DNA of 64,000 nt from Polaromonas sp. YR568 (GTDB lineage Bacteria > Pseudomonadota > Gammaproteobacteria > Burkholderiales > Burkholderiaceae_C), in NCBI RefSeq assembly GCF_943371715.1, contig NZ_CALRVW010000021.1:2254-66253 (forward strand), given 5' to 3'. The notes below the pieces were generated by a model, which was not told where the DNA came from, did no database searches, and saw only the letters and a list, made by a program, of their open reading frames with translations. Below, one piece after another: positions 3,165 through 39,599 of the stretch. Position 1 is the stretch's first letter, and each line of letters starts with the position of its first letter. The translations under genes and the position numbers were made by a program.

Positions 3165-5251
3165 GCTTTTCCTCCAATGGTGGCCGTCACCTTGATGGTG
3201 CGGGTGTCGGGTATCTCAGCGTGGGAAAGCACCTTGAGCTGCGGCAGGCTGCGGCGCAGAAAGCGGGCCAGCAATACACGCAGCGGGTGCTGGACCACCA
3301 GCACGGGCGCCAGACCCAGCTGTGACTGGCGGTCCATGGCCAGCTGGGTTTCCCTCAGCAGGCTGTCAGCCAGGCCTGGCTCCAGTCCACTGCTGTTGGT
3401 CAGGGCCTGCAGCAAAACACGATCCAGCGAGCTGTCGAGGCCTATCACTTGCAGTTCCTCGTTGCCCGGGAAAATCTGCTGGACAATCGCACGGCCCAGC
3501 GCCAGCCGGATCAGCGACGTCAGCTCCGTGGTGTCTGTCACCGTCGGTGCGTGCTCGGCGAGCACATCCAGAATGGTGCGCATGTCGCGGATGGGAACGC
3601 TCTCGTCGAGCAGGTTCTGAAGCACCTTCTGCAGCGTCGTCAGGGTCAGGGTTTTGGGAACCAGATCCTGAATGAGCATGGGTGACTCTTTCCCGATGCG
3701 ATCAAGCAGTTGCTGGACTTCCTGCCGCCCCAGCAGCTCCGCCGCATGCGCGTGAATCAGGTGATTGAGGTGGGTGGCGACGACCGTGCTGGCATCCACC
3801 ACCGTGTAGCCGTAAATCTGCGCCTGTTCGCGCAGGCTGCTGTCGATCCAGATCGCCGGCAGGCCGAAGGCGGGGTCCCGCGTCTGCGTCCCGGGAAGCG
3901 TGGCACTGACCTGACCCGGGTTGATGGCCATCCACTGCCCGGGGGAAGCCTCGCCCTGGCCGATCTGTACGCCCTTGAGCTTGACCACATACGCGTTCGG
4001 TTTGATTTCAAGGTTGTCGCGGATGTGAACCACGGGCACCAGAAAGCCAATGTCCTGCGCGAATTTTTTACGTATGCTTTTGATGCGCCCCAGCAATTCG
4101 CCGTTCTGGGTTTTGTCCACCAGGGAAATCAGGCGGTACCCCACCTCGAGACCTAGCGGATCCACCAGCGCCACATCGTCCCATGTTGCTTCCTGCGACT
4201 CCACGGGATTCACCACCTGCGCAGGCGCCGCCACCGCGGCATCAGCGTTCTTCACGCCGCCTCGCATGACACGCCGGCCGAGCCAGACCAGGCCACCCGC
4301 AATGATCAGGAAGGCGAGGTTCGGCATGCCGGGAATCAATCCCATCAGACCAATCACGCCCGCCGTCAGGAACAGGACCTGGGGATTGGCAAACAGCTGG
4401 CCGGTGAGCTGCCCGCCCACATCCTCGTCAGTCGTCACGCGCGAGACGATGACACCCGCCGCGGTTGAAATGACCAGGGCCGGGATCTGCGCGACCAGGC
4501 CGTCACCAATGGCGAGCAGGGTGTAGGTCGTGCCAGCCTCCGAGAACCCGAGACCATGCTGGGCCATGCCGACAATCAGGCCGCCAATGATGTTGATCAC
4601 CAAAATGAGAAGGCCTGCAACGGCGTCGCCGCGGACGAATTTGCTGGCGCCGTCCATCGACCCGTAAAAGTCGGCCTCCTGTGCCACTTCGGCACGGCGC
4701 TTGCGCGCCACGTCTTCGCCAATCAGGCCGGCATTGAGGTCGGCGTCGATCGCCATCTGCTTGCCCGGCATCGCATCGAGCGTGAAACGAGCGCCCACCT
4801 CGGCAATGCGCCCGGCGCCCTTGGTGATGACCATGAAGTTGATCACGACCAGGATGATGAACACCATCACACCCACGGCAAAGTTGCCCCCGACCAGGAA
4901 ATGCCCGAACGCCTCGATCACCTTGCCGGCGGCGTCCGGACCGGTGTGGCCCTCCATCAGCACCACGCGGGTGGACGCGACATTGAGTGACAGCCGCAGC
5001 AGCGTGGTGAACAGCAGCACGGCGGGAAAAGCCGCAAAATCCAGCGCCTTCATGGTGTACATGCTGACCAGAAGCACCATGATCGACAGCGCGATATTGA
5101 AGGTGAACAGCAGGTCCAGCAGGAACGGCGGCAACGGCAACACCATCATGCTGAGAATCAGGATGATCAGGATAGGGCCGACCAGCCCCTTGCCCTGGTT
5201 GCCGGCCAGCATCTGCCTGGGCAGGCGCAACAACGAATTCGTCAATGTCAT
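3161..5251 (-). CDS. flhA: Flagellar export gate protein FlhA
   Basis: 696 aa, FHIPEP motif RFTLDAMPGKQMAIDADLNAG, N-terminal TM helices. Confidence 0.98.
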   Translation of the reverse strand: MTLTNSLLRLPRQMLAGNQGKGLVGPILIILILSMMVLPLPPFLLDLLFTFNIALSIMVLLVSMYTMKALDFAAFPAVLLFTTLLRLSLNVASTRVVLMEGHTGPDAAGKVIEAFGHFLVGGNFAVGVMVFIILVVINFMVITKGAGRIAEVGARFTLDAMPGKQMAIDADLNAGLIGEDVARKRRAEVAQEADFYGSMDGASKFVRGDAVAGLLILVINIIGGLIVGMAQHGLGFSEAGTTYTLLAIGDGLVAQIPALVISTAAGVIVSRVTTDEDVGGQLTGQLFANPQVLFLTAGVIGLMGLIPGMPNLAFLIIAGGLVWLGRRVMRGGVKNADAAVAAPAQVVNPVESQEATWDDVALVDPLGLEVGYRLISLVDKTQNGELLGRIKSIRKKFAQDIGFLVPVVHIRDNLEIKPNAYVVKLKGVQIGQGEASPGQWMAINPGQVSATLPGTQTRDPAFGLPAIWIDSSLREQAQIYGYTVVDASTVVATHLNHLIHAHAAELLGRQEVQQLLDRIGKESPMLIQDLVPKTLTLTTLQKVLQNLLDESVPIRDMRTILDVLAEHAPTVTDTTELTSLIRLALGRAIVQQIFPGNEELQVIGLDSSLDRVLLQALTNSSGLEPGLADSLLRETQLAMDRQSQLGLAPVLVVQHPLRVLLARFLRRSLPQLKVLSHAEIPDTRTIKVTATIGGKA

Positions 5252-27612: not shown

Positions 27613-28518
27613 TTATGCGGCCTTCTTCGTCATCTGTTCCACCCACTCGCGCGGCGCCATCGGGAAGCCCAGGCGCTCTCTGGATTCGTAATAACTCTGC
27701 GCGACGGCACGCGCCAGGTTGCGGATGCGGCCGATGTAGGCGGCACGTTCGGTCACTGAAATCGCGCCGCGCGCGTCCAACAGGTTGAAGCTGTGCGCGG
27801 CCTTGAGCACCTGTTCATAGGCGGGCAGCGCAAGCTGCACTTCGATCAGGTGTTTGGCCTGCTTCTCGTAGGCGGTGAAGGCGGTGAACAGGAAGTCGGC
27901 GTCGCTGTGTTCGAAGTTGTAGGCCGACTGCTCCTTCTCGTTTTGCAGGTAGACGTCGCCGTAACTCATGCTGTCTGTCCACTGCAGGTTGTAGACGTTG
28001 TCCACCCCCTGCAGGTACATGGCCAGGCGCTCCAGGCCATAGGTGATCTCGCCGGTGATGGGCCGGCAGTCGATGCCGCCGACCTGCTGGAAGTAGGTGA
28101 ACTGCGTGACTTCCATGCCGTTGAGCCAGACCTCCCAGCCCAGGCCCCAGGCGCCCAGCGTCGGATTTTCCCAATCGTCTTCCACGAAGCGGATGTCGTT
28201 CTTCTTCAGGTCAAAGCCCAGCGCCTCGAGCGAGCCGAGGTAGAGCTCCAGGATGTTGCTGGGCGCGGGCTTGAGCACGACCTGGTACTGGTAGTAGTGC
28301 TGCAGGCGGTTCGGGTTCTCGCCGTAACGGCCGTCTTTCGGGCGGCGGCTCGGCTGCACGTAGGCGGCCTTCCAGGGCTCGGGGCCCAGCGCTCTCAAAA
28401 ACGTAGCAGTGTGCGACGTCCCGGCGCCCACTTCCATGTCATAGGGCTGCAACAGTGCGCAGCCCTGGGCATCCCAGTAGGACTGGAGCTTCAAGATGAT
28501 TTGCTGAAAGGTCAACAT
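27613..28518 (-). CDS. glyQ: Glycine-tRNA ligase alpha subunit
   Basis: [37 protein letters not shown]. Confidence 0.99.
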
Positions 28519-28572
28519 AAATTGGGTGTGCGGCGACGCAGGGCCGCGGTAAGGGACCGCACGGGCCTGAAC

Positions 28573-28598
28573 CCGCGAAAACCCTTCATTTTACGCGG
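28573..28598. other. attL (26 bp): CCGCGAAAACCC-TT-CATTTTACGCGG
   Basis: Right arm is the inverted complement (11/12) of the left arm of attR; lies at the host/phage border and contains the recombinase stop codon. Confidence 0.8.
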
Positions 28599-29203
28599 CT
28601 AAGGTACGGTCCCAGAACAGGCTTGATAAGTCGCTTCGGGCGATCAGTTCTTGGCTCAAAACGCTCGATTGCTGCATCAATCGTGGTGGAATGAGCATTA
28701 AATTTTCTTGAAAGTGTCGCTTTTTTGAAACGTCCAGTTTTGAATAATTCATAAACTTGGCGATCCTGTTCGGGCGTTAACCGCCGGGGACGGCCAATAA
28801 CAACGCCTCGTTCAATTGCCGCGACCAACCCAGCAATTGACCTCTCCCGAATCATTGATCGCTCCAGCTGGGCCACAGCGCCGAGTATCTGGAGCATGAA
28901 AATCCCCATGGGGGAAGTGGTGTCCAGTGGCTCAGAGAGTGACCTGATGCAAGCGCCAGAATCGGCAATCCGGTCAAGAATGGACAGCAGGTCCTTGAGA
29001 GATCGTGCAACGCGGTCGATTTTGTAAACGACCAGGACATCGCCAGGCGACAACGCAGCAAGGCAGGTTTGCAAGACTGGGCGGCGCCCGATAGAGCTTG
29101 TTTTTTCCTGATAAATCAGTGAAACACCAGCGCGATGAAGTGCATCGATTTGAAGATTTGTCTCTTGTTCGAGCGTGGAAACTCTCGCATACCCAATCAG
29201 CAA
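28586..29203 (-). CDS. Small serine recombinase (resolvase/invertase family, C-terminal HTH)
   Basis: LIGYARVST (catalytic Ser), [32 protein letters not shown] plus HTH; TTG start with AAGGAGG RBS. Confidence 0.96.
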
Positions 29204-29324
29204 ATTGCCTCCTTGATTACTACGTTGGTCTTATGGGAACGCAGTAGTCTAGTGAAGAAAATACAGGCTTTTCATGGCGCGAAACGAGGGCCGACAGCAG
29301 ATTGACGACTGCGATCGCGACGAA

Positions 29325-29408
29325 GGCCGACCCTGCGGGATCGGCTAAGGTGTGCGAGCTGCTTAAGGCGGGGTCAGCTTCGCTTCGCTTACATGGGGCA
29401 GACCCCAT
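29325..29408. other. Intergenic hairpins (candidate packaging signal or minus-strand origin)
   Basis: GGCCGACCCTGCGGGATCGGCT stem and ATGGGG-CAGA-CCCCAT at 29393-29408 in the largest non-coding stretch of the phage. Confidence 0.35.
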
Positions 29409-29453
29409 ACCCCAAAACCAAGGGCACATGGCTGTTCGGAGTAGACTAAGCAT

Positions 29454-29687
29454 ATGGAACTCGAAATCTATAACGCATTTGTCAAGGCCGGCGTGCCAGA
29501 AGCCGAGGCGAAGGCTGCCGTCGAATCGATCAACAAGGAAATCGACAAGCGGTATTCGCTGCATGCTGGTCAGTTGGCGACTAAAAGCGATTTAGCCGAT
29601 GCGAAGGTCGAAATCATCAAGTGGACGGTTGGAAGCATGTTTGCGGCAGTCGGGCTTTTTGCGGCCATTGTGAAGCTGTTGCAGTGA
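29454..29687 (+). CDS. Small coiled-coil protein with C-terminal TM helix (DUF1640/CCDC90-like), phage accessory gene
   Basis: GVPEAEAKA, LATKSDL..K.EIIKW then a hydrophobic tail; followed by a terminator. Confidence 0.75.
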   Translation: MELEIYNAFVKAGVPEAEAKAAVESINKEIDKRYSLHAGQLATKSDLADAKVEIIKWTVGSMFAAVGLFAAIVKLLQ

Positions 29688-29704
29688 TCTAAAACGCTCC
29701 GTAG

Positions 29705-29729
29705 AAAAGGCCCCTTGAGGGCCTTTTTT
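29705..29729. terminator. Bidirectional intrinsic terminator
   Basis: AAAAGGCCC-CTTGA-GGGCCTTTTTT between convergent genes. Confidence 0.85.
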
Positions 29730-29741
29730 ATTGGGGTGCCG

Positions 29742-31076
29742 TCAGGGCATCTTCTGCACCTGGAGCACCAGCAGAATCTGCGTTTTGCTGTTGTCGCTGG
29801 CCTGGCTCTTTGTCCAGGAGGGAAGGAACGCGAAGCCGTTGCTATCGTTCGAGGCCTTGTCCTCATCCAGTCCACCAATCACGATCAAATCGCCGTCGGC
29901 AGCGCCTATGCTGGTCGATATCTCCCGCTTGATGAGCGTCGGGCTGTTGTTGACGCCGGTAGTTGTGGCCACGAAGCTGGAGAGCTGCTGTGAAATGGCC
30001 AAGTCAATGACGCTGTCGCGGATCTGCGGCTTGATATCGAAGATAGAGCCGCTCGGCTTGTATTCGATGGACTGGACAGGGTTGCCGTTCTTGTCGAGCT
30101 GGACCGCGCCGAGGACAGGCACATCAGAGCCAACACTAAACCGAGCCGACGCGCCGCTTTTGACGCGCAGCGAGGGGTTGCTGACGGACTTGAAGCGGGC
30201 ATCGGTGGACAGCGCAGAAAACACGGCGTCGATCTGTGCGTTTTTGAAGCTCACGGTGCTGCCGACCAAGGTCTGACCGAAGGTCAGCCCAAAACGGCCT
30301 TTGAGGATGCTGACAGCGAGATTAAAGGCACTGCCCTCCTTCATGCTGGTGGTGACCTCGTAGACCATGCCTTTGACAAACACCTCAGGAACAGGGGTGT
30401 CCACCTGGGCCAGCAGCTTTTGCAGCAGGGCAATTTCCTTTTCTGTGCCCTCGAAAAGGAAGCTATCGGTCTCGCCCTTGTCGATCTGGGCCGTGGCGCT
30501 AGTGCTGGACTCTTGGCCCTGCCTCTGCCTTTGGGCTGGAGATGGAGGCGCGGTAGCGGCGGGTGCGGCCGTGGGCATGCCCAGGGGGACGGGTTGAATC
30601 AGCTGGCTTGACTGGGTGTCGGCAGCGCGGATATTTCTTTGCACGCTGAATCGGCCAGTTTTGAAGAGAGAGGACGTGATATCCATGAGAGAGCTGACCG
30701 GGCGGTATTTAGCACGGTAGAAAAATATCTCTTTGTCGGGCACTTCCCCAAGTTGGGGAACGTGGGGACGCAGGAACACATACCCGCGCTTTTGTTCGAC
30801 GACGACACCGACACCGGCCAACAGATCGACCATGAAGGTGGACAGCTTGCCCTGGTCAAAATCTCCCTGGAAGTGGACGGTGACTTGCTTAGGCAATTCG
30901 ACCAGGTCAGGGTGCACCGCGAAATTGGTTTTGAGAATGTCGCCATACACAAAATTGACCAGGGTGACGACTGAGATTTTGTCGAAATTGAGGTTGATTG
31001 CTTTGTCGTTGACAGTGGGCGCAGCGGCGGCCAGCGAGGCCAAGAAGAGCCAGAGCAGCGGAAGTAACTTTTTCAT
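29742..31076 (-). CDS. Phage secretin (pIV/GspD-like)
   Basis: Signal peptide, N0/N3 domains, VDTPVPEVFVKG, SNPSLRVKSG.SARFSVGSDVPV. Confidence 0.93.
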   Translation of the reverse strand: MKKLLPLLWLFLASLAAAAPTVNDKAINLNFDKISVVTLVNFVYGDILKTNFAVHPDLVELPKQVTVHFQGDFDQGKLSTFMVDLLAGVGVVVEQKRGYVFLRPHVPQLGEVPDKEIFFYRAKYRPVSSLMDITSSLFKTGRFSVQRNIRAADTQSSQLIQPVPLGMPTAAPAATAPPSPAQRQRQGQESSTSATAQIDKGETDSFLFEGTEKEIALLQKLLAQVDTPVPEVFVKGMVYEVTTSMKEGSAFNLAVSILKGRFGLTFGQTLVGSTVSFKNAQIDAVFSALSTDARFKSVSNPSLRVKSGASARFSVGSDVPVLGAVQLDKNGNPVQSIEYKPSGSIFDIKPQIRDSVIDLAISQQLSSFVATTTGVNNSPTLIKREISTSIGAADGDLIVIGGLDEDKASNDSNGFAFLPSWTKSQASDNSKTQILLVLQVQKMP

Positions 31077-32128
31077 TTTCTGGCATCCGGTAAGAGCGTG
31101 GTGGCGTCGGGCGAGCCGGTGTAGTTGGCAAGCAATTTGCCATCAAGAGAGCCATAGGCCCGCAGGGCGTCGTAATAAAAACCGCGGGGGTTCATGAGGG
31201 TACGGACGGCCTGACCGCGGGTGATGATGACGTAGTGGTCTGGGCCGAAGCTGTAATGACCCACGACGCGCCAATCGGATTCACCGGGCTCAGCGCGGGG
31301 CGGCGCAGCACCAGGCAGGCCAGGAGCTGTCACGGCAGCGCCTGGTGAGGGCTTGGGCGGCGGCGGGTGAAAGAAGCGCCACAGGCCCCACACGGAGAAG
31401 CCGAAGAACAGAAGCATCAAGGGCAGGCCGATGGTGAACATCGCGCCTTTGAGCATATTGGCGCGGTCATCGATGGCGACTTCGTTGCCGCTTTGCCCGC
31501 CGCCCTGGCTGTAGGAGCGGTAGAGCTCGAAAATTTCTTTGTTGTACTTGCGCTGCAGGGAGCGGTAGGGGTTGCGAACCTTGACGCGGGCGTAGATATC
31601 GACGCGGTAGCGTGTGGTCAGGCCGAGCGCCTTGAGCTTGGTCATGACGTAGGTGTTTTCTACGACCGCTTTCAACTTGCGGTCAAGGTCACCAATGTCC
31701 TGGACGACCAGGACGATATCGCAGGTTACCGAGGTTTCAGGATTCATGAAATGCCGGTGCATCCGGAAAAATTCCATGTGCGCAAGGGGCATCTTGCCGC
31801 CGCTGGGCCAGAAGCGCCAGCACTCATCAATCACGACCAGATCGCCGCCCTGCACAACCGGCAGCACATCCGCTGGGAGGCCTTTGCCGTCCTCAGGCGG
31901 GAAGAAAAACGGTTTGGTGACGTCTTCGTGCTTGATCTGGACAATGGTTCCGATCTTGGACGCATCCGCGCCAGATTTGACCAGGTAGGCGGTTATCTCG
32001 GCCACCTGCAAATTGGAAACGTTGGTGACAACGCGGCGACCGGCGATCAGGGCCGGAAGGATAACGTTCTCAACAACTTCGTAGGACTTGCCGGAGCCCA
32101 TCAGACCGGTGTAGGCGTTGATTGCCAT
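31073..32128 (-). CDS. Zot-like assembly ATPase (pI)
   Basis: AYTGLMGSGKS Walker A, LVVIDECWRFW Walker B, HRH, single TM near aa 240. Confidence 0.96.
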   Translation of the reverse strand: MAINAYTGLMGSGKSYEVVENVILPALIAGRRVVTNVSNLQVAEITAYLVKSGADASKIGTIVQIKHEDVTKPFFFPPEDGKGLPADVLPVVQGGDLVVIDECWRFWPSGGKMPLAHMEFFRMHRHFMNPETSVTCDIVLVVQDIGDLDRKLKAVVENTYVMTKLKALGLTTRYRVDIYARVKVRNPYRSLQRKYNKEIFELYRSYSQGGGQSGNEVAIDDRANMLKGAMFTIGLPLMLLFFGFSVWGLWRFFHPPPPKPSPGAAVTAPGLPGAAPPRAEPGESDWRVVGHYSFGPDHYVIITRGQAVRTLMNPRGFYYDALRAYGSLDGKLLANYTGSPDATTLLPDARK

Positions 32129-32130
32129 GG

Positions 32131-32427
32131 TCAGCCGATGACGGGAATGCGGCGGATCAGGAAACGCGCCACATGGGCGGATATGAGCAGCGGCAGGCCG
32201 ATATCGAGGGCGAAGAAGTCCAGGAAGAACCAGACGCCGGAGGGAATGCCGGCAAAGGCGCTGGTCAGACCGCCCGGGCTGATAAAGGCGCCGAGGTACT
32301 CAATGACAAGAGGTGCAAGCTCTGACACCAGGGCGAACACAGCGCCGAGTACAACGGCCTTGATAACCACGTCCTTGATGACCCATGAAGCGATGGACCA
32401 GGCGATGCCAGCAAGAGGTAAAGGCAT
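32131..32427 (-). CDS. Minor coat protein pVI-like (DUF2523-like)
   Basis: 98 aa hydrophobic, ends RFLIRRIPVIG, sits between pIII and pI. Confidence 0.85.
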   Translation of the reverse strand: MPLPLAGIAWSIASWVIKDVVIKAVVLGAVFALVSELAPLVIEYLGAFISPGGLTSAFAGIPSGVWFFLDFFALDIGLPLLISAHVARFLIRRIPVIG

Positions 32428-32429
32428 GG

Positions 32430-33872
32430 TCAGGCTTTCAGGACGATGAACATGGCCGACAGGGTGAAGGCGGCAGTCATGACGGCACGCAGCTGGCCGA
32501 AGTGGTCTTCGACGAGCTGGCAGTGGGCATCAATGACGAAGGTGCGGTTGTTCCAATCGAAGGAGCTTGTCGGGCAACTGGATGAGTGCGCGGGCAGGCT
32601 CCAGCCGAGCAAACCGCCGAAGGGGCCATTTGCGTTTTTGTTCAGGCCTACGCCTTTGATGTCGGCTCCGGTTTTGGCTTGCGGATCGGAAGGGGTGGAC
32701 GAATCGCCCGTGAGAAAGTCCTTGATCTGGGTCAGGAGTCCTTTGTTGGCCTGCTGGGTAGACTCGCAGGCATCGCCGTTTGCGCAACTGCCTCCGCCCG
32801 TTCCAGTGCCACTGCCGGTGCCTGTCCCTGTACCGGTTCCCGTACCGCCGCCAGTGCCTCCACCAGTGCCTCCGATGCTGATAGAAAGGCCTTGGCCGGC
32901 GTTGCTTGATGCACCGTTGCCTAGGGTGTCGGAGATGAGGACATTGTCTGTACCAGGAACGCGTGTACCGGTCTGGTCGTAGGAGGAAACGACGACGCCC
33001 GTCGCGGTGGTTGCAGCGCCGCCGGAGGTGGTGACATTGAGCTCAGCGGATTGCGCGACGGTCACGGAACCGTCAGAGGCGCGGGTCACAACGAGGTTCT
33101 TGCCAGAAGTGCCGGATGTGGTGGGCGCGAGCTGCTGGGACATGGTGTAGCCGCCGTCGGTGATGGTGGCGGTGGGCTTGGGCGCCGGATTGGATGCGGT
33201 GGCCGGGGGCGTGTATTGCCACTCGCCGGTAGCACCGCCAGCCGATGGAGCCCAGCCGCCAGTAGCGCCATCTCCTGCGAATTGACCGCCGCCACCTGGC
33301 ACAAATGATCCGTCCGGGTTGGTGGCAATAGAGGGCGTGGAAGTGTCACCGGGTGCGGGGGATGGCGTGGCATTGCTGGAGGGTTCGAGATTGACCGTGA
33401 GCGGCGGGGAGGATGCGTCTACAGCAGCTTGAGCGGTTGCGGGTGTGGGGGCATCAGCGCCCATCACGAGACTGGCAACTCCCAAATGCAGCGCGGCAGC
33501 AGCGAGCAATGGGACAACCAAACCTCCAGTACCGACAACAGCACCAGCAATCGCACCAGCAGCAAGCACCTTGGCTCCGATCTCTAAAGCCTTCTGCAAA
33601 GGAATAGGGCTTTGGGTTGCAGGCGGGGGATGAGGTGACAGGTTTAAGGATCCAACAGCGCAGGATTCGGGAGCGCCAGAAATGACCCGACAGGCGTAGC
33701 TGGGGTATGCGTCGAGAATTGAAGCGCAGGAATCGGTGCAAATAGTTCCAACGGCAGCAGCGTTGCCGGCGCAAACAAGAACATTACTGCCGCAGTAAAC
33801 ATCTGCGAACGCAGGGCGAGAGCACAAGAACACAACAGCGCAGCAAACGGCGGCTAAACGGCGGGAGGTCAT
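32430..33872 (-). CDS. Adsorption protein pIII-like
   Basis: Signal peptide ending AFA, Cys-rich N domain, Pro/Thr and GT-repeat linkers, C-terminal C..C domain plus TM; start taken as MTSRRL at 33872 (480 aa). Confidence 0.88.
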   Translation of the reverse strand: MTSRRLAAVCCAVVFLCSRPAFADVYCGSNVLVCAGNAAAVGTICTDSCASILDAYPSYACRVISGAPESCAVGSLNLSPHPPPATQSPIPLQKALEIGAKVLAAGAIAGAVVGTGGLVVPLLAAAALHLGVASLVMGADAPTPATAQAAVDASSPPLTVNLEPSSNATPSPAPGDTSTPSIATNPDGSFVPGGGGQFAGDGATGGWAPSAGGATGEWQYTPPATASNPAPKPTATITDGGYTMSQQLAPTTSGTSGKNLVVTRASDGSVTVAQSAELNVTTSGGAATTATGVVVSSYDQTGTRVPGTDNVLISDTLGNGASSNAGQGLSISIGGTGGGTGGGTGTGTGTGTGSGTGTGGGSCANGDACESTQQANKGLLTQIKDFLTGDSSTPSDPQAKTGADIKGVGLNKNANGPFGGLLGWSLPAHSSSCPTSSFDWNNRTFVIDAHCQLVEDHFGQLRAVMTAAFTLSAMFIVLKA

Positions 33873-33958
33873 AGACGCAAACCCGCGATAACGGCGCAGG
33901 CGCACACAACGCCGAATGCAAAAATTGACAGATTCCACAGATCGACGGCTGACGGCAT
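33869..33958 (-). CDS. Tiny minor coat protein (pIX/pVII-like), 29 aa
   Basis: MPSAVDLWNLSIFAFGVVCACAVIAGLRL, single TM, stop overlaps the pIII start. Confidence 0.65.
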   Translation of the reverse strand: MPSAVDLWNLSIFAFGVVCACAVIAGLRL

Positions 33959-33960
33959 GA

Positions 33961-34290
33961 TCAGATCCTTGGGGTACGGATTCGGTTTGACGATGAGCGG
34001 CCAGTGCGGCCCTCGAAGAGGAACAGGGCGCGGCGGGATTCCATGTCGACAAGATCGCCGCTGCGAACTTTTTGCTTGACTTCGCTCAGTGCGGTGAAGT
34101 AGTCGTCTTTGTCCCACCACCTGCCGCCGTAGTAGACCTGACCGCGAACCATGCCGAGGACTTGGCGAACTGCAAAGATGGTGACGAATACGCCCATGAG
34201 AACGACGCCACAGGCGAGGACGGCAACGGTTGTTGTGGAGAAATCGATTGCGGCCAGAATGGGCGCAAAGTTGGGAGCGACGGTAGCCAT
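33961..34290 (-). CDS. Major-coat paralog with ~60-aa C-terminal extension
   Basis: Ungapped 16/46 identity to mature pVIII, shared 14-bp DNA block; AGGA RBS. Confidence 0.75.
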   Translation of the reverse strand: MATVAPNFAPILAAIDFSTTTVAVLACGVVLMGVFVTIFAVRQVLGMVRGQVYYGGRWWDKDDYFTALSEVKQKVRSGDLVDMESRRALFLFEGRTGRSSSNRIRTPRI

Positions 34291-34352
34291 GAGCATTCCT
34301 GGTGAAGGTGAGGACGTGGAGCGCAGCGCTACGCCCCACACCTGGTTAAAAC

Positions 34353-34637
34353 TTAACCGCGCTTGACCATGCCCAGCACGAGCTGGGAAGCCTTCACCAC
34401 GATGTACACAACCATCAACGAGCCGGCGACCAGCAGGAGCGCAGCAATCGCTGTGGAGAAATCGACTTCATTGGTCAAACCGCTCATATCGGGGGGCACG
34501 GCCAGAGCGGGCGTTGCAGCGGTCAGCGCGAGAGAACCGGCACCAACAACAGCGGCCACGCGAACGGATGCGCCGGAGAAGGCGCTGGAGACAGCAGCAA
34601 CGGCAGCAAGGGCGAACACCATAATTTTCTTGAACAT
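34353..34637 (-). CDS. Major coat protein pVIII precursor
   Basis: Leader ending ALA, ~48-aa mature peptide with acidic N-terminus, TM helix and basic C-terminus (VKRG); GAAAGGA RBS. Confidence 0.88.
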   Translation of the reverse strand: MFKKIMVFALAAVAAVSSAFSGASVRVAAVVGAGSLALTAATPALAVPPDMSGLTNEVDFSTAIAALLLVAGSLMVVYIVVKASQLVLGMVKRG

Positions 34638-34711
34638 TTTGCGAGGTCCTTTCGAGACACTAAGTCCGGGAAACTGCCCGGCCAGATTCGTCGATAAACG
34701 AATGTGTTACG

Positions 34712-35086
34712 TCAAAACTCCCTGACGGCTTTGACGACCAACCCAATCACATGGGAGGAAAAATAGAGCAGCATCACGCCTGTGAAACCGAAGGCCCAAA
34801 AGGAACCGAGGGCGGCGTAGTCGTAGGACTCTGCGGGGGTGGTGCTGGCGGTTGTTGTAGGTGGTTCGCAGACCTGCAAGATCGGCCAGACCTGTGAGCT
34901 GTACGACCAGTGGCAATCGTTTTGCGTGGACCCTGCGTAAAAAATCGAACCAGGCGAACCGTTGTTAATTGCCAAATTTAGGCAAGCCTCTGCGGGAGTG
35001 TTGCCCGTCGCGCCGGGAAGGTTGGCGACGATAGAGGCATGCGCGATCTTGTACGGCTTTTGGTTTTCAGTGCAGGTCGGGAGCAT
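34712..35086 (-). CDS. Minor coat protein (pVII-like) with Cys-containing N-terminal domain
   Basis: C-terminal YDYAALGSFWAFGF..TM..KAVREF; position between the ssDNA-binding and coat genes. Confidence 0.65.
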   Translation of the reverse strand: MLPTCTENQKPYKIAHASIVANLPGATGNTPAEACLNLAINNGSPGSIFYAGSTQNDCHWSYSSQVWPILQVCEPPTTTASTTPAESYDYAALGSFWAFGFTGVMLLYFSSHVIGLVVKAVREF

Positions 35087-35159
35087 GGCGCAGTGATTCG
35101 GGTGTTGTTTGCGTGTGAACGAATTCAGTAGCGCCCTTGGGAGGCGCTGGAAAATTCGA

Positions 35160-35501
35160 TCAGGCGGCTTTAAGTTGCGCGGCTTCGGAACGCCCGCGTT
35201 GAGATGCAGACTCCATCGGGCGGGCGCTCATCACGACTTCCTTGCTTTCGGAGCCGTTGGAGACTCGCTCGACCTCGAGCTTTGCCACGAAGGGGTAAGG
35301 CAGGTGCTGCATCGAGAACACCGAAGCGGCATTCGGCATCTTCCACTCCTCGACGCACTCGCCGCCTTTGAAGTTCTTGCCGTCCTCGTTGTTTTTCGTG
35401 GCGAGCTTGACGCGGGTGTAGAGCGTGCCGCTGTCAATTTCTTTGCCGTCGATGTTGCCTTTGAAGGCTTTCATGCCGATAACTTCAACTGTGAGTTCCA
35501 T
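35160..35501 (-). CDS. ssDNA-binding protein (pV-like)
   Basis: 113 aa, beta-rich (VIGMKAFKGNIDG), directly after Rep. Confidence 0.8.
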   Translation of the reverse strand: MELTVEVIGMKAFKGNIDGKEIDSGTLYTRVKLATKNNEDGKNFKGGECVEEWKMPNAASVFSMQHLPYPFVAKLEVERVSNGSESKEVVMSARPMESASQRGRSEAAQLKAA

Positions 35502-36720
35502 TTAATTTCCTTGTGATTGCGGGCAGCTCGTACCATTCAGGTTGAGACGCAGGGCCGAGCCGGATTACCCTGGTTTTCATTTTGAGAGGGACTACGTTGC
35601 TTTTGATGGCTATGTCGCAGCCATACGGGAGCAGCTCCTTTCTGTGACGGAAGAACGTTGCGCGGGACAGCTTCTCAGGCAGCGCATCACCGGCCTGCCA
35701 CATGCGATAGGTGGACAGCAAGTGCTTCGGCAATTCCGTGATTTCCTCGACCTCGGCGGATGCACGCGTGAATACTTCACAGGCTTTTTCAAATTCGATT
35801 TCAAGCTGTTTCATGTCATAGCCTCCGAGGTAGTTGCACCCCAACGCGTGCAGCTTTGTGGACTTGACGGTTAGCTCAGCACGGACCAACCCCACTTCAT
35901 CGCACCAGTCAGCCAGCTTCAACAGGTAGTCATTCGACGGTGGCTGTTTGCGTAGTGACGGATCAACATCGAGCAGTCCAGGAAGGTGCGGAATTGTTCG
36001 CGGTGCCTTGGCTCCTGAGATGTGTTTGCGAAGCTCTGGGCCTTTGCTGTAGACCTTGAAATACATGTTGCGGGAACCACGGCCAAAATCGACGGTTTCG
36101 CCGTCACCAATGGTTTGCGTCTTGATCCGGCTGGCTTGCTGACCTGCCAGAAACCGCATGAAGTGATACGCGTTTTCCTTGGAACCGGTGACGAAGTTTT
36201 GCGTGATGTCCACCCGCGTGACGCGTGCGCCGGTCCACACGCTGCGGGGATTGCCTTTGAAATTCGTCATGAACCGGTCGCCCTCGGTGAACGCTGGCAA
36301 TCCAAGTTCTGAGAGGATGTTGTTGATCTGGCCGATGCACTGGATGAAGCTGTAGCCGAAGACGTTGTCGGGCCGTCCGAACTTGGAAACGTTGCCGTCG
36401 AACCGGACCGTGTCACCGTCACACCGGATAAAAATCGCGGACTCGTGCGAGCCTTCGACCTTGACGCTTTTGAGGGTAGTGGTCACAACTTCACCGTTTT
36501 TGTCGATACGCAGCACAGCGCCGTCGGCAAAGCGTGGAAGGTTTCCGCCGTGTTGCTGGTAGATCGAAATCCAGTCACAGAAGCCGACCATCTGGGCTTT
36601 TGTGGCTGGACTGACTCGCCATTTTTCGGCAAGTCTTGGAAACAATTGCCGGACATCCGGAACGTGGCCGGGAAGCTGGTTTGTCTCACCGGTGAGACTA
36701 GATTGACGTGTTACTAGCAC
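35485..36720 (-). CDS. Rolling-circle replication initiator (gene II/X, Phage_CRI-like)
   Basis: FCDWISI, DGNVSKFGRPDNVFG, VTRVDITQNF, YFKVYSKGPEL, VRAELTV. Confidence 0.9.
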   Translation of the reverse strand: MLVTRQSSLTGETNQLPGHVPDVRQLFPRLAEKWRVSPATKAQMVGFCDWISIYQQHGGNLPRFADGAVLRIDKNGEVVTTTLKSVKVEGSHESAIFIRCDGDTVRFDGNVSKFGRPDNVFGYSFIQCIGQINNILSELGLPAFTEGDRFMTNFKGNPRSVWTGARVTRVDITQNFVTGSKENAYHFMRFLAGQQASRIKTQTIGDGETVDFGRGSRNMYFKVYSKGPELRKHISGAKAPRTIPHLPGLLDVDPSLRKQPPSNDYLLKLADWCDEVGLVRAELTVKSTKLHALGCNYLGGYDMKQLEIEFEKACEVFTRASAEVEEITELPKHLLSTYRMWQAGDALPEKLSRATFFRHRKELLPYGCDIAIKSNVVPLKMKTRVIRLGPASQPEWYELPAITRKLNGTHS

Positions 36721-36727
36721 GTCAATC
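36683..36727. other. Putative double-strand replication origin (twin hairpins)
   Basis: Perfect palindrome GTCTCACCGGTGAGAC (36683-36698) next to a 10-bp stem GATTGACGTG-TTACTAG-CACGTCAATC (36701-36727) at the rep start. Confidence 0.7.
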
Positions 36728-37067
36728 CTTTTTGACCTTCGGCAGCGATCGCGGTTGCCTCCGGCTTCGCTTCGCTCCAGGCGGGGGCAACCGGTACGCA
36801 GCTACAGGTTTTGCCGCCGCATGCGATCACGTTGCGGACTGGAACCGTAATGCGGGTTTGTTCAGGCCAAAGGGTTTCAACTGTCCAGCAGTTGGGGCCA
36901 CCAGGAACGGTATAGGCGTCTTTTATGACGGCGCAGTACACCACCATGCCGCGCTTGGCTAAAACGTGCTGGGCATGCACATGGCGAAGCTGAGCAGCGT
37001 CATAGCAACGCCGGAAGTGTTCTTCGTAGGTATACGGCTCGGATGAAATTGAGGGCTTCAGGCTCAT
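36714..37067 (-). CDS. Phage hypothetical protein, Cys-rich, 117 aa
   Basis: Overlapping start/stop coupling with both neighbours. Confidence 0.65.
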   Translation of the reverse strand: MSLKPSISSEPYTYEEHFRRCYDAAQLRHVHAQHVLAKRGMVVYCAVIKDAYTVPGGPNCWTVETLWPEQTRITVPVRNVIACGGKTCSCVPVAPAWSEAKPEATAIAAEGQKGLTC

Positions 37068-37381
37068 GCGTTCACCTGACCAAATGAGGATTTCCCCATG
37101 TTGAAGAATTGGAGGGATGCGAGTACACCAGGCACAAGGTCCAGCAGATCGAGCTGGTTGACCTGGTGGGGTGTTCCCCGAGTTGGGGAGGGGATCGAGT
37201 GAAAGGAGGTGCAGATCCCGCCGCTAGTGACTTCAACCGAGTACCTGGAGCAGTACGGACGCGGCGGCAGGCCTATGCCGTTTTCTGGCTGGGCGTCGGT
37301 GAGGTACCTACAGTTCCTGCACCCGGTGCGGTCTTTGGGGGAGAGGTAGCCGATTTCGGCGTGGCGAGCGACTAGTCTCAT
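37064..37381 (-). CDS. Phage hypothetical protein, possible 4-Cys zinc finger, 105 aa
   Basis: CRNC..YC..C pattern; ATGA coupling. Confidence 0.6.
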   Translation of the reverse strand: MRLVARHAEIGYLSPKDRTGCRNCRYLTDAQPENGIGLPPRPYCSRYSVEVTSGGICTSFHSIPSPTRGTPHQVNQLDLLDLVPGVLASLQFFNMGKSSFGQVNA

Positions 37382-37518
37382 TTACGCAGCCGCTCCAAGA
37401 AGGGCCAGAGGATGCGGTCACAAAAGACCATGCCAACAATGCATGAAGCGATGCCGACAACGACAAAGCAAAGCGTCAAAAATGCGCCCTGCCAATAGGT
37501 AATGCCGAGAAGACTCAT
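37378..37518 (-). CDS. 46-aa single-TM peptide
   Basis: MSLLGITYWQGAFLTLCFVVVGIASCIVGMVFCDRILWPFLERLRK; ATGA overlaps on both sides. Confidence 0.55.
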   Translation of the reverse strand: MSLLGITYWQGAFLTLCFVVVGIASCIVGMVFCDRILWPFLERLRK

Positions 37519-37646
37519 TCGCAGTGCTCCATGAGCGATGGCTCGACGATGAGAAAATAGATGACTTGGGCGGCAACTGTTAAAGCGAACGAAATGACGC
37601 AAAAACAAGGCAGCAGGACCCACAGAGCAAATTGCATAAAACTCAT
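37515..37646 (-). CDS. 43-aa single-TM peptide
   Basis: MSFMQFALWVLLPCFCVISFALTVAAQVIYFLIVEPSLMEHCE; stop coupled to the next gene; weak RBS. Confidence 0.45.
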   Translation of the reverse strand: MSFMQFALWVLLPCFCVISFALTVAAQVIYFLIVEPSLMEHCE

Positions 37647-37658
37647 CTGGAGGCACCC

Positions 37659-37820
37659 ATGGGGGAGTATTGGCAGCTGGTCGAAACGGTGGTCTGGTTC
37701 GCTTTTTTCGCGCTGGTGGCTTGCGTAGCAGCAGTCTTTGTGACGATCTGGCTGAAATGGGATTCGAACAACGAGACCGAAAGACACCCACCAGAGCGCA
37801 AAAGACGCAGACCGTTCTGA
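37659..37820 (+). CDS. 53-aa single-TM peptide with basic tail
   Basis: GGAGG RBS, TM then ERKRRRPF. Confidence 0.55.
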   Translation: MGEYWQLVETVVWFAFFALVACVAAVFVTIWLKWDSNNETERHPPERKRRRPF

Positions 37821-37946
37821 TGCGAACATTTGCGGTGCCCAGTCAGCCGAATCACTGGTAGAAGACCTAAGCCCAAACAGCCTCGTCGATCGAGAACGCA
37901 AGATCGACCGAAGGTAAGAATAAATTCAACAGAAATTGCAGAACAA

Positions 37947-38159
37947 ATGGACAAACAACTTGCCATGGGAATGGCTTTCGTGGCTTTTTTCTCCATCGCA
38001 TTCGCGGCTATGGGAATGTGGGTTGCGTACCTGGTAATCAAGGAAGCAATCAAAGTCGCTCTGATCGAATCAGGCTTACTTGATGCCCTGGACAAGATTG
38101 CTACCTGGCAGCCAAAAGACGAATCAAAAGGCAAATGGCCTGAGCTGCCCAAGCAGTGA
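37947..38159 (+). CDS. 70-aa single-TM peptide
   Basis: MDKQLAMGMAFVAFFSIAFAAMGMWVAYLVIKEAIK... Confidence 0.55.
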   Translation: MDKQLAMGMAFVAFFSIAFAAMGMWVAYLVIKEAIKVALIESGLLDALDKIATWQPKDESKGKWPELPKQ

Positions 38160-38308
38160 ATGCACGCCCCCAGCCCGAGAGATTCGACAGGTGGCACCCC
38201 ATCGGGCTCCCTTTCGTGGACTGGGGGAGTGCAAGCGGTGTAGCTCATCGCGCCTGCGGGTGAGCCTGTGTACGAGGTTATTGCCATGGAGTGCCATCCG
38301 GTTGAAGT

Positions 38309-38392
38309 CATGCACCTTGCATGACGAACAGAAGCTTAGAAGGCATTCACCTTGCATGTCAAGCGCTTGTTAACATGCATGCACCTTGTAGA
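38309..38392. promoter_or_regulatory. Three operator repeats, consensus CATGCA-CCT-TGCATG
   Basis: 38309-38323 CATGCACCTTGCATG, 38344-38358 CATTCACCTTGCATG, 38378-38392 CATGCACCTTGTAGA. Confidence 0.85.
38333..38362 (-). promoter_or_regulatory. Strong sigma70-type promoter for the phage early operon
   Basis: TTGACA (38362-38357), 18-nt spacer, TAAGCT (38338-38333); operator 2 lies in the spacer. Confidence 0.75.
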
Positions 38393-38412
38393 CAAATCAC
38401 GTAAAGGCTGAT

Positions 38413-38676
38413 ATGCAAAACACACTAGACCTACTGAAAAAGGCAACGGAAGAACAGCCGCTGCCGTACTGGACTAAGAAACTTGAACTCTCGAAAAACA
38501 CGCTTTCGACGTCGAAAATTCGTGGGCACCTGAGCCCTGCAATAGCAGGGCGTTTAGCCGAGTTTCTAGAGGAAGATGTCGAGCACTGGGTAATGGTTGC
38601 CGCGCTTGAATCTGAGCGTGACAGTGCGTGCAAAACGCACCTGCTGAAACGGATGAAAGACCGCGTAAAACGTTGA
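38413..38676 (+). CDS. Phage repressor (HTH, inovirus type)
   Basis: HTH-like N-terminus then LSPAIAGRLAEFL..WVMVAALESERDS; divergent from the main operon across the operators. Confidence 0.8.
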   Translation: MQNTLDLLKKATEEQPLPYWTKKLELSKNTLSTSKIRGHLSPAIAGRLAEFLEEDVEHWVMVAALESERDSACKTHLLKRMKDRVKR

Positions 38677-38686
38677 TTTTACGGAG
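38661..38686. other. attR (26 bp): CCGCGTAAAACG-TT-GATTTACGGAGC
   Basis: Left arm complements the attL right arm; the TT core overlaps the repressor last codon and stop. Confidence 0.8.
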
Positions 38687-38723
38687 CTTTCACCGGGTTA
38701 CCCTGAGACACAAGGAAAGTGTC

Positions 38724-39599
38724 ATGACAACCCAACAATTGATTCTGAGCCTGGTGCTGGCCACCATGGTGTTTTCGGTCGCGCTGGAACTCAGGGTGAG
38801 CGACTTCAGGCGCGTCGCGCAAACACCCAAAGCGGTGGTCTGCGGGCTGATCCCGCAGTTCATCCTGCTGCCGGTGGGCACCTGGCTGGCCACCCTGGCG
38901 CTGGACCTGCCACCCAACGTCGAGGCCGCGATGATCCTGGTGGCGGCCTGCCCCGGCGGCAGCCTGAGCAACGTGATTACCCACCTGGGCCGCGGCAACA
39001 CGGCGCTGTCGGTCAGCGTGTCGGCCGTGGCCAGCGTCATTGCGCTGGTCGCCACACCGTTCAACTTCAGCTGGATGGTGGCGGCCAACCCAGCCACGGC
39101 CGGCTGGCTCAAGACGCTGGACATCGACCCCTCGGGCATCTGGATCAGCCTGTTCCTGCTGCTGGCTCTGCCGATGGCCTTGGGCCTGCTGTTTTCGCAC
39201 CAGTTGCCTGCGCTGACGGCGCGCATCCGCAAGCCACTGGGCAACTTTTCGCTGCTGGCCCTGCTGGCTTTCATCGTGCTGGGGCTGATCAAGGAGCGCC
39301 AGTTGCTGACGCTGGGCCTGCTTCCCATGCTGGCCATCGTGATCGCGCACAACGCCAGCGGACTGTTTTTCGGCTGGGCCACCAGCAAGGCCATGGGTGT
39401 GAGCGAACGCGACCGGCGCGCCGTGATGATCGAGGGCGGCATGCAGAACTCGGGCCTGGCGCTGGGCATCATTGCCGTACAGTTCAACTCGGACCTCGGC
39501 ATGGTCATCATTGCCAGCCTGTGGGGCATGTGGCACATCGTCAGCGGCCTGTCGCTGGCCTACTTCTGGAGGAAAAAAGATGCTCGACTTGCTTATTAA
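38724..39599 (+). CDS. Bile acid:sodium symporter family transporter
   Basis: AACPGGSLSN, EGGMQNSGLAL, multiple TM helices. Confidence 0.92.
   Translation: MTTQQLILSLVLATMVFSVALELRVSDFRRVAQTPKAVVCGLIPQFILLPVGTWLATLALDLPPNVEAAMILVAACPGGSLSNVITHLGRGNTALSVSVSAVASVIALVATPFNFSWMVAANPATAGWLKTLDIDPSGIWISLFLLLALPMALGLLFSHQLPALTARIRKPLGNFSLLALLAFIVLGLIKERQLLTLGLLPMLAIVIAHNASGLFFGWATSKAMGVSERDRRAVMIEGGMQNSGLALGIIAVQFNSDLGMVIIASLWGMWHIVSGLSLAYFWRKKDARLAY

Follow-up and report, generated by a model that had tools for sequence, protein, structure and literature searches.

Integration of an inovirus by its small serine recombinase creates the stop codon of a repressor-like gene: a recurrent layout and a possible integration-coupled switch

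The window, a 64,000-nt stretch of a Polaromonas sp. YR568 contig, contains an inovirus prophage whose body spans 28587-38674 (10,088 bp) and has a GC content of 0.567, against 0.655 in the flanks. The left end of the prophage is formed by a small serine recombinase of the resolvase/invertase type (28586-29203, minus strand, 205 aa, TTG start), which matches PF00239 (E 1.7e-38) and phrog_125 (DNA invertase, E 1.8e-54) and shares 49% identity over 185 aa with the resolvase of Ralstonia phage Rs551/RSM, its closest cultured-phage relative. Also on the minus strand lie genes for a secretin (29742-31076), a Zot/pI protein (31073-32128) and a G2P-type replication protein (35485-36720). The right end is formed by a gene on the plus strand for a repressor-like DNA-binding protein (38413-38676), the prophage form of which is 87 aa long. 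The recombinase points into host glyQ (27613-28518, minus strand) in the left flank, and an SBF-family symporter gene (38724-39599, plus strand; PF01758, E 3.3e-32) follows 47 nt past the repressor stop on the same strand. A terminator scan found no terminator-like site either between the repressor and the symporter (38676-38724) or, on the minus strand, between the recombinase and glyQ (28518-28586), so phage transcription may run into both host genes. The window's own assembly holds one prophage copy, and none of its contigs carries a circular-phage or attB junction. The secretin is pIV-like; none was called on the contigs of the closest circular relative, a phage of 6,822 bp (L013-L018).

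The 87-aa ORF is probably a repressor, a call that rests on its PHROG label, its genomic context and non-significant fold matches. It matches phrog_31301 ('DNA binding protein', E 1.8e-25) and phrog_4441 ('HTH DNA binding protein'). No Pfam match was found, a PDB sequence search returned a ribosomal protein at E 0.3 as its sole, non-significant hit, and GenBank phages yielded no match. AlphaFold predicts six helices with a pLDDT of 92.5, and Foldseek searches of PDB and BFVD with this model returned CI, Cro, HigA and repressor HTH-type proteins at TM 0.5-0.58, all at non-significant E values above 0.7; the top viral fold matches are nearly all CI, Cro or repressor proteins, likewise at non-significant E. 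The core is strongly conserved: across 67 sequences, 23 columns are invariant. The gene and the replication module diverge, and just upstream of the former lie three copies of CATGCACCTTGCATG (38309-38392, plus strand), with 0, 1 and 3 mismatches and spacings of 35 and 34 nt, which are candidate operators. Since window-wide counts of CATGCACCTTGCATG at 3 mismatches are not above chance, it is the clustering of the copies that constitutes the signal.

The prophage ends in a 28-nt imperfect direct repeat, each copy of which is also an imperfect palindrome. Together with a comparison to empty attB sites, these direct and inverted repeats define attL at 28573-28600 (CCGCGAAAACCC TT CATTTTACGCGGCT; B arm, TT, P' arm) and attR at 38661-38688 (CCGCGTAAAACG TT GATTTTACGGAGCT; P arm, TT, B' arm). 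Aligned in register, attL and attR mismatch at positions 6, 10, 12, 15, 24 and 25, and between mismatches 12 and 15 their common sequence is the TT only. An 8-bp block, ATTTTACG, is also common to attL and attR further to the right. Empty sites were sought in genomes of the same genus with the 300 nt left of attL as the query. Three genomes (L002, L003 and L004, with flank identities of 97%, 88% and 83%, respectively) carry an uninterrupted attB, which reads CCGCGAAAACCCTTGATTTTACGGAG in all of them, with C at position 12 as in attL and G at position 15 as in attR. The empty attB thus reads TTGA, which confines the exchange to the TT and identifies the GA of the repressor stop (38675-38676, plus strand) as native host DNA; the attP bases that match this host GA are CA in a natural relative, L019. 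The crossover dinucleotide, enclosed by positions 12 and 15, at which attB and attP differ, lies at 28585-28586 on the left and at 38673-38674 on the right, where it supplies the last base of the CGT codon and the first base of the repressor TGA. A crossover within the shared ATTTTACG block, which would have kept the stop in the circle, was considered and excluded, because attB would then read TTCA rather than TTGA.

The host attB of 26 bp is CCGCGAAAACCC TT GATTTTACGGAG, and the reconstructed attP, also of 26 bp, is CCGCGTAAAACG TT CATTTTACGCGG, with 11 of 12 arm positions symmetric about the TT. To judge by its letters, this symmetry is what the site of a serine recombinase should look like, and judging from these sites it was the phage's own small serine recombinase that integrated it, with the exchange at the TT. 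In the window, attB is intergenic, between glyQ and the SBF symporter gene. The identical 26-bp attB of L002, L003 and L004 lies upstream of glyQ as well, near locus position 1790-1830; as it is unchanged despite flank identities of only 83-97%, its conservation within the host genus does not depend on the phage. On the phage side, attP sits where the repressor-like gene and the recombinase gene converge and overlaps both ORF ends. As a consequence of the att arms being inverted copies, the C-termini are SRVK-stop for the recombinase and DRVKR-stop for the repressor. The recombinase TGA consists of the second T of the crossover and the CA of the P' arm, read on the opposite strand; each of the two stops, the recombinase's and the prophage repressor's, borrows one T of the crossover.

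The first-pass annotation had placed the crossover TT in the last codons of the repressor, and this position is now pinned by the three empty attB sites; a crossover downstream of the stop, which that annotation had named as a possible objection, is ruled out by their TTGA. Its prophage protein was likewise confirmed as an 87-aa ORF ending DRVKR, with CGT TGA as the final codons. When 38674 is joined to 28587 to reconstruct the circle, the reading changes to CGT TCA and the ORF extends to 128 aa, reproducing exactly the 41-aa tail that the annotation had quoted. This circle-only tail is encoded at 28587-28711 (plus strand), with a TGA at 28709-28711, and runs antisense to, and codon-aligned with, the 3' end of the recombinase. 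Integration swaps the repressor TCA (Ser) for TGA, and in the reconstruction the stop of the recombinase (28586-28588, TCA on the plus strand) remains intact, as had been claimed. In the reconstructed circle the two ORFs overlap by 126 nt; integration sets the two genes 10 kb apart.

Long forms of the protein also occur naturally. A homologue search with the 128-aa form as the query found 156 homologues of the repressor, most of them exactly 87 aa long and a minority of 98-188 aa. One long homologue, P0002 (141 aa, 86% identical), contains RLKR-SFYRAKQ, and its ORF shares 165 nt with that of a convergent 205-aa resolvase. Its gene was found on 11 contigs overall, comprising a 6,877-nt SPAdes length class with 55-nt terminal overlaps and a 6,852-nt Logan length class with 30-nt overlaps, and the six contigs that were retrieved all represent the same circle of 6,822 bp, opened at six different positions. 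A second, P0007 (137 aa), lies on L019, a non-circular contig of 2,713 bp whose attP core is identical to the reconstructed attP of the window across 24 nt. Two further circular contigs, L103 (7,173 nt, 141-nt overlap) and L104 (7,502 nt, 30-nt overlap), encode ORFs of 131 and 142 aa, respectively, that overlap a resolvase; the overlap between the repressor and recombinase ORFs is 136-165 nt in L103 and L013. Both forms are present in one culture in Variovorax sp. CAN15, a cultured isolate (L108 = G041:C38, scaffold132; L106 / L038). Its phage contig (7.3 kb, circular or tandem, with a 292-nt terminal repeat) carries a 119-aa attP form, and its chromosomal attR contig carries the 87-aa form; the two contigs are identical over 274 nt and then read TAC and TAA, respectively.

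The layout recurs across the phage family, for which we took a census of 83 loci from genome and IMG/VR collections. At 63 of these no recombinase follows the gene, and 60 of the 63 ORFs are 84-93 aa long (43 exactly 87 aa). Eight loci have a convergent serine recombinase directly after the gene, with ORFs of 98-136 aa and one exception of 87 aa, and the remaining 12 show a dif-like sequence where the ORF ends. Overall, attP-form ORFs are 98-142 aa long, against 84-93 aa for the prophage-end cluster. The stop-at-crossover arrangement that the first-pass annotation had proposed to look for in related prophages was found in about seven serine-recombinase att types, with junction codons changing from TCA to TGA, from TAC or TAT to TAA, or from TAC to TAG. 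In type A, G TT C becomes G TT G (TCA to TGA), with attP in L019 and in the reconstructed window circle and the integrated form in the window and L020; type A' follows the same pattern with GT at the centre (attP in L013, integrated in L109). Type B changes TAC or TAT to TAA (attP in L103 and L104; integrated in L027, L028, L025, L052 and L054), and TAC becomes TAA in both type C (attP in L037, integrated in L038) and type D (attP in L090, integrated in L056 and L024). Type F, whose attP was reconstructed from the attL and attR of L110/L111, the loci that hold its integrated form, changes TAC to TAG. The stop falls one codon later in type E (attP in L060, integrated in L088) and two codons later in type G (integrated in L112, from the attL and attR of which attP was reconstructed).

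Counted from codon 84, an in-frame stop follows within 4-8 codons at all 18 attR loci, and after 15-59 codons at 10 of 11 attP loci; in its two remaining frames the attR DNA runs for 0 to 337 codons before a stop. The P' and B' arms are almost the same (at 12 of 13 positions in L109), yet they differ at the base that decides between sense and stop. In types A and A' the attP TCA doubles as the stop of the recombinase, read on the opposite strand, and is hence forced. The junction of types C and F lies outside the recombinase ORF, whose coding therefore does not impose a sense codon at that place, and where such coding sets no constraint the attP junction codon is Tyr (TAC or TAT). One locus departs from the rule: L075 (IMGVR_UViG_3300005095_000264, 2497-3386) has an attP-like junction and a repressor ORF of 87 aa with its own TAA, and tblastn places a 209-aa resolvase 15 nt downstream of the repressor, with overlapping stops (TTAA). 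The replication modules of L075 differ across the junction (Rep_trans to the left, REP_ORF2-G2P together with Zot to the right), so the locus is probably a tandem or composite of two different inoviruses and does not settle the matter in either direction. That the layout recurs in about seven att types suggests that it is not an accident of the window's single site. As a sign of selection this recurrence is suggestive but not decisive: the att types have a common ancestry and so do not amount to independent trials, att cores are AT-rich, and with TA-N or T-N-A fixed, two-thirds of base changes give a stop.

The 12 loci with a dif-like sequence belong to a sister subfamily of the window repressor, in which TGTATATTATGTTAAAT lies in the last codons and the ORFs end in CILC-stop, LYIM or YYVK. 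Longer relatives that read on past the dif core are represented by P0086 and P0112, and no serine recombinase was found near the genes of this subfamily. To the extent that these ORF ends can tell, the subfamily follows the same principle of an open attP and a closed attR as published for phiRSS0. Its members (L022, L026, L030, L061, L063, L066, L074, L078, L079, L082, L084 and L085, with ORF ends near locus position 3300-3500) have a hydrophobic, transmembrane-like C-terminal extension, e.g. RKILGRAALACVYGLAVAATVLIAPSQAMA, and are possibly membrane-anchored repressors with XerCD-type integration.

Across relatives the tails of the long form vary from 11 to 55 aa, and their common part is the att-encoded SFY only. 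No conserved or degron-like motif was found among the tails of the relatives, which end in STPI, FPTP, QAATA, QAAVA, LQLA, RAR and others with no shared motif, and none resembling ssrA was found by sequence on the window tail, which is basic (net charge +6) and ends in SIKFS. As the codons of the window tail lie exactly opposite those of the recombinase, stops arise only at TTA, CTA and TCA codons of the latter; these number 7 of 205, giving an expected run of about 29 codons, so the 41 codons observed in the window are unremarkable. In the AlphaFold model of the natural 141-aa P0002 protein, the six-helix core is kept, the last helix is extended to about residue 110 with falling confidence, and residues 107-141 have a pLDDT below 50. 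In this model the tail looks like an appended, mostly disordered segment, and such predicted disorder would fit a destabilising or interfering extension and a meaningless one equally well.

We propose, at about even probability, an integration-coupled repressor switch in which the long form encoded by the circle is less active or less stable and the integrated form is compact and active. The reconstructed circle encodes the core with the 41-aa tail, predicted to continue the last helix and then become disordered, and the prophage the 87-aa helical core alone. The tail may weaken the circle-encoded repressor through lower stability, through impaired dimerisation or DNA binding, or through poorer expression across the convergent overlap, and with a weak long repressor the replicative form would stay productive. 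Integration would then yield a repressor that is compact and active and shuts the phage down at the three upstream repeats, and excision would reverse the change. More tentatively, and at somewhat less than even probability, the coupling of stop and crossover may be a selected, clade-wide decision device of Comamonadaceae inoviruses, operated either by their own serine recombinase (with at least seven att cores) or by XerCD/dif. On that broader reading, a repressor and a recombinase that converge on a 26-bp palindrome may amount to a minimal integration-sensing lysogeny switch with a host-donated stop, which we likewise hold to be slightly less probable than its negation.

Alternatively, the arrangement may be a neutral by-product: an AT-rich att core lies at converging 3' ends, the phage base drifts once the host provides the stop, and the long form works like the short one. 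We consider this a substantial possibility, although well short of even. The unconserved tails of chance-like length point in this direction, as do the forced attP TCA of types A and A', the ease with which base changes at the junction codon make a stop (two in three), the 87-aa ORF beside a recombinase in L075 and the largely disordered AlphaFold tail of P0002, which fits no folded function. The base beside the crossover could, moreover, serve the recombinase as a discriminator between attP and attB, which also counts against a switch. Drift, however, predicts stop and sense codons side by side in attP and both near and far stops in attR, whereas attP is open in 10 of 11 cases and attR is closed within a few codons in all 18; the Tyr junction codon is seen in attP forms that are free of any recombinase coding constraint, and the dif-type subfamily obeys the same rule.

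Improbable, in our estimation, is that the long form has a positive role in the free phage, or that read-through at the RNA level tunes the recombinase only while the genome is circular. Such a role would accord with the ORF overlaps of 126 nt in the window circle and 136-165 nt in L103 and L013, with the 10-kb separation of the two genes upon integration and, on the protein side, with Yamada's suggestion that the full-length ORF13 protein of phiRSS0 regulates host genes. Against it, little or none of the tail falls within the recombinase ORF in types C and F, and the overlap is 7 nt or none in L090 and L081, so overlap is not a constant feature; the lack of tail conservation also argues against a specific function at the protein level. 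That the ORF is not a repressor at all, its C-terminal change being devoid of regulatory meaning, seems to us very improbable. Such a reading could appeal to the missing Pfam match and PDB sequence relatives and to fold matches with E above 0.7, but it is opposed by the phrog_31301 (E 1.8e-25) and phrog_4441 labels, by top viral fold hits to CI, Cro and repressor proteins, and by a conserved core in a gene that is divergent from the replication module with three clustered repeats in front.

The first-pass annotation had not been aware of an integration-dependent switch of this kind described for inoviruses, and in this it was mistaken. In phiRSS0, an inovirus of Ralstonia solanacearum, attP lies within the 3' end of ORF13, a repressor-like HTH gene (Yamada 2013, PMC3816273; Askora and Yamada 2015, PMC4471427); upon integration a new stop arises that cuts the product from 156 aa down to 130 aa, and it was suggested that the longer and the shorter protein may not have the same function (Yamada 2013, PMC3816273). 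As in the window, a filamentous phage thus has a repressor-like protein shortened by an integration-made stop, a likeness of layout. The means differ, since phiRSS0 has a dif-like attP and uses host XerCD, whereas the window phage has its own small serine recombinase, a 2-bp crossover and a 26-bp palindrome, and, unlike in phiRSS0, its recombinase gene converges on the att site. In the Xanthomonas inovirus XacF1 / Cf1c, attP lies inside ORF12, a putative regulator, and integration may alter the protein (Ahmad et al. 2014, PMC4076744). There, integration is mediated by dif/XerCD, the site lies deeper in the ORF and the gene is described as split, whereas in the window a serine recombinase acts in the last codons.

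The annotation's analogy to mycobacteriophages stands in part. In the tailed phage BPs, attP is located inside rep, Rep and Int each end in a C-terminal proteolysis tag, which Rep loses upon integration, and integration-dependent immunity has been proven experimentally (Broussard et al. 2013; PMC3694055; PMC4557955). BPs and the window phage share an attP in the repressor ORF, a longer viral form, an integrase gene that adjoins attP and the absence of an evident directionality factor, and in relatives of the window phage the long form is carried by natural circles. However, the BPs integrase is a tyrosine integrase that is co-transcribed with rep and is itself tagged, whereas the serine recombinase of the window is convergent and its C-terminus is unaltered; and where BPs has a defined proteolysis tag, none is recognisable by sequence in the window. 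Closer in enzymology are phiRSM1, phiRSM3 and phiRs551, which are integrated by a small serine recombinase of the resolvase/invertase type (Askora et al. 2011; PMC5608472). These RSM-type phages resemble the window phage in being inoviruses with a small serine recombinase as integrase and an adjacent repressor gene. The attP of Rs551 is the 13-bp 3' end of a tRNA-Ser gene, between the 3' end of the repressor and the 5' end of the recombinase (PMC5608472); in Rs551 the two genes are co-directional and attP is external to both ORFs, about 36 nt from that of the repressor, whereas in the window they are convergent and attP overlaps both ORF ends.

The claim to novelty therefore fails in part, as the layout is published for other filamentous phages. 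What is new here is the phage-encoded small serine recombinase, the 2-bp crossover that straddles the stop, the convergent overlapping genes and the extension to a whole Comamonadaceae phage family; a serine-recombinase version of the integration-made repressor stop was not found described in the literature. Should the long and the short form turn out to differ in activity, the arrangement would be the simplest means known by which a chronic, non-lytic phage senses its integration, with no extra regulator, the recombination itself editing the repressor with one or two host bases. Integration-dependent immunity would then extend from tailed actinobacteriophages with tyrosine integrases to ssDNA filamentous phages of Proteobacteria with serine recombinases, and the 2013 hypothesis on phiRSS0 would become testable in a family with many natural attP/attR pairs. 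If the forms prove equal, the family would be an instructive case in which form-specific C-termini arise by accident from an AT-rich att core placed at the end of a gene.

A further group of loci (L033 and L101, at about 3250-3300, and also L053, L045 and L102) has repressor ORFs that end in WRKR-stop or RDSNPR-stop. In the L033 and L101 group, a tRNA 3' end, TGGCGGAAGCGGTGAGATTCGAACTCAC, on the other strand overlaps the last codons, an arrangement that resembles RSM-like attachment sites.
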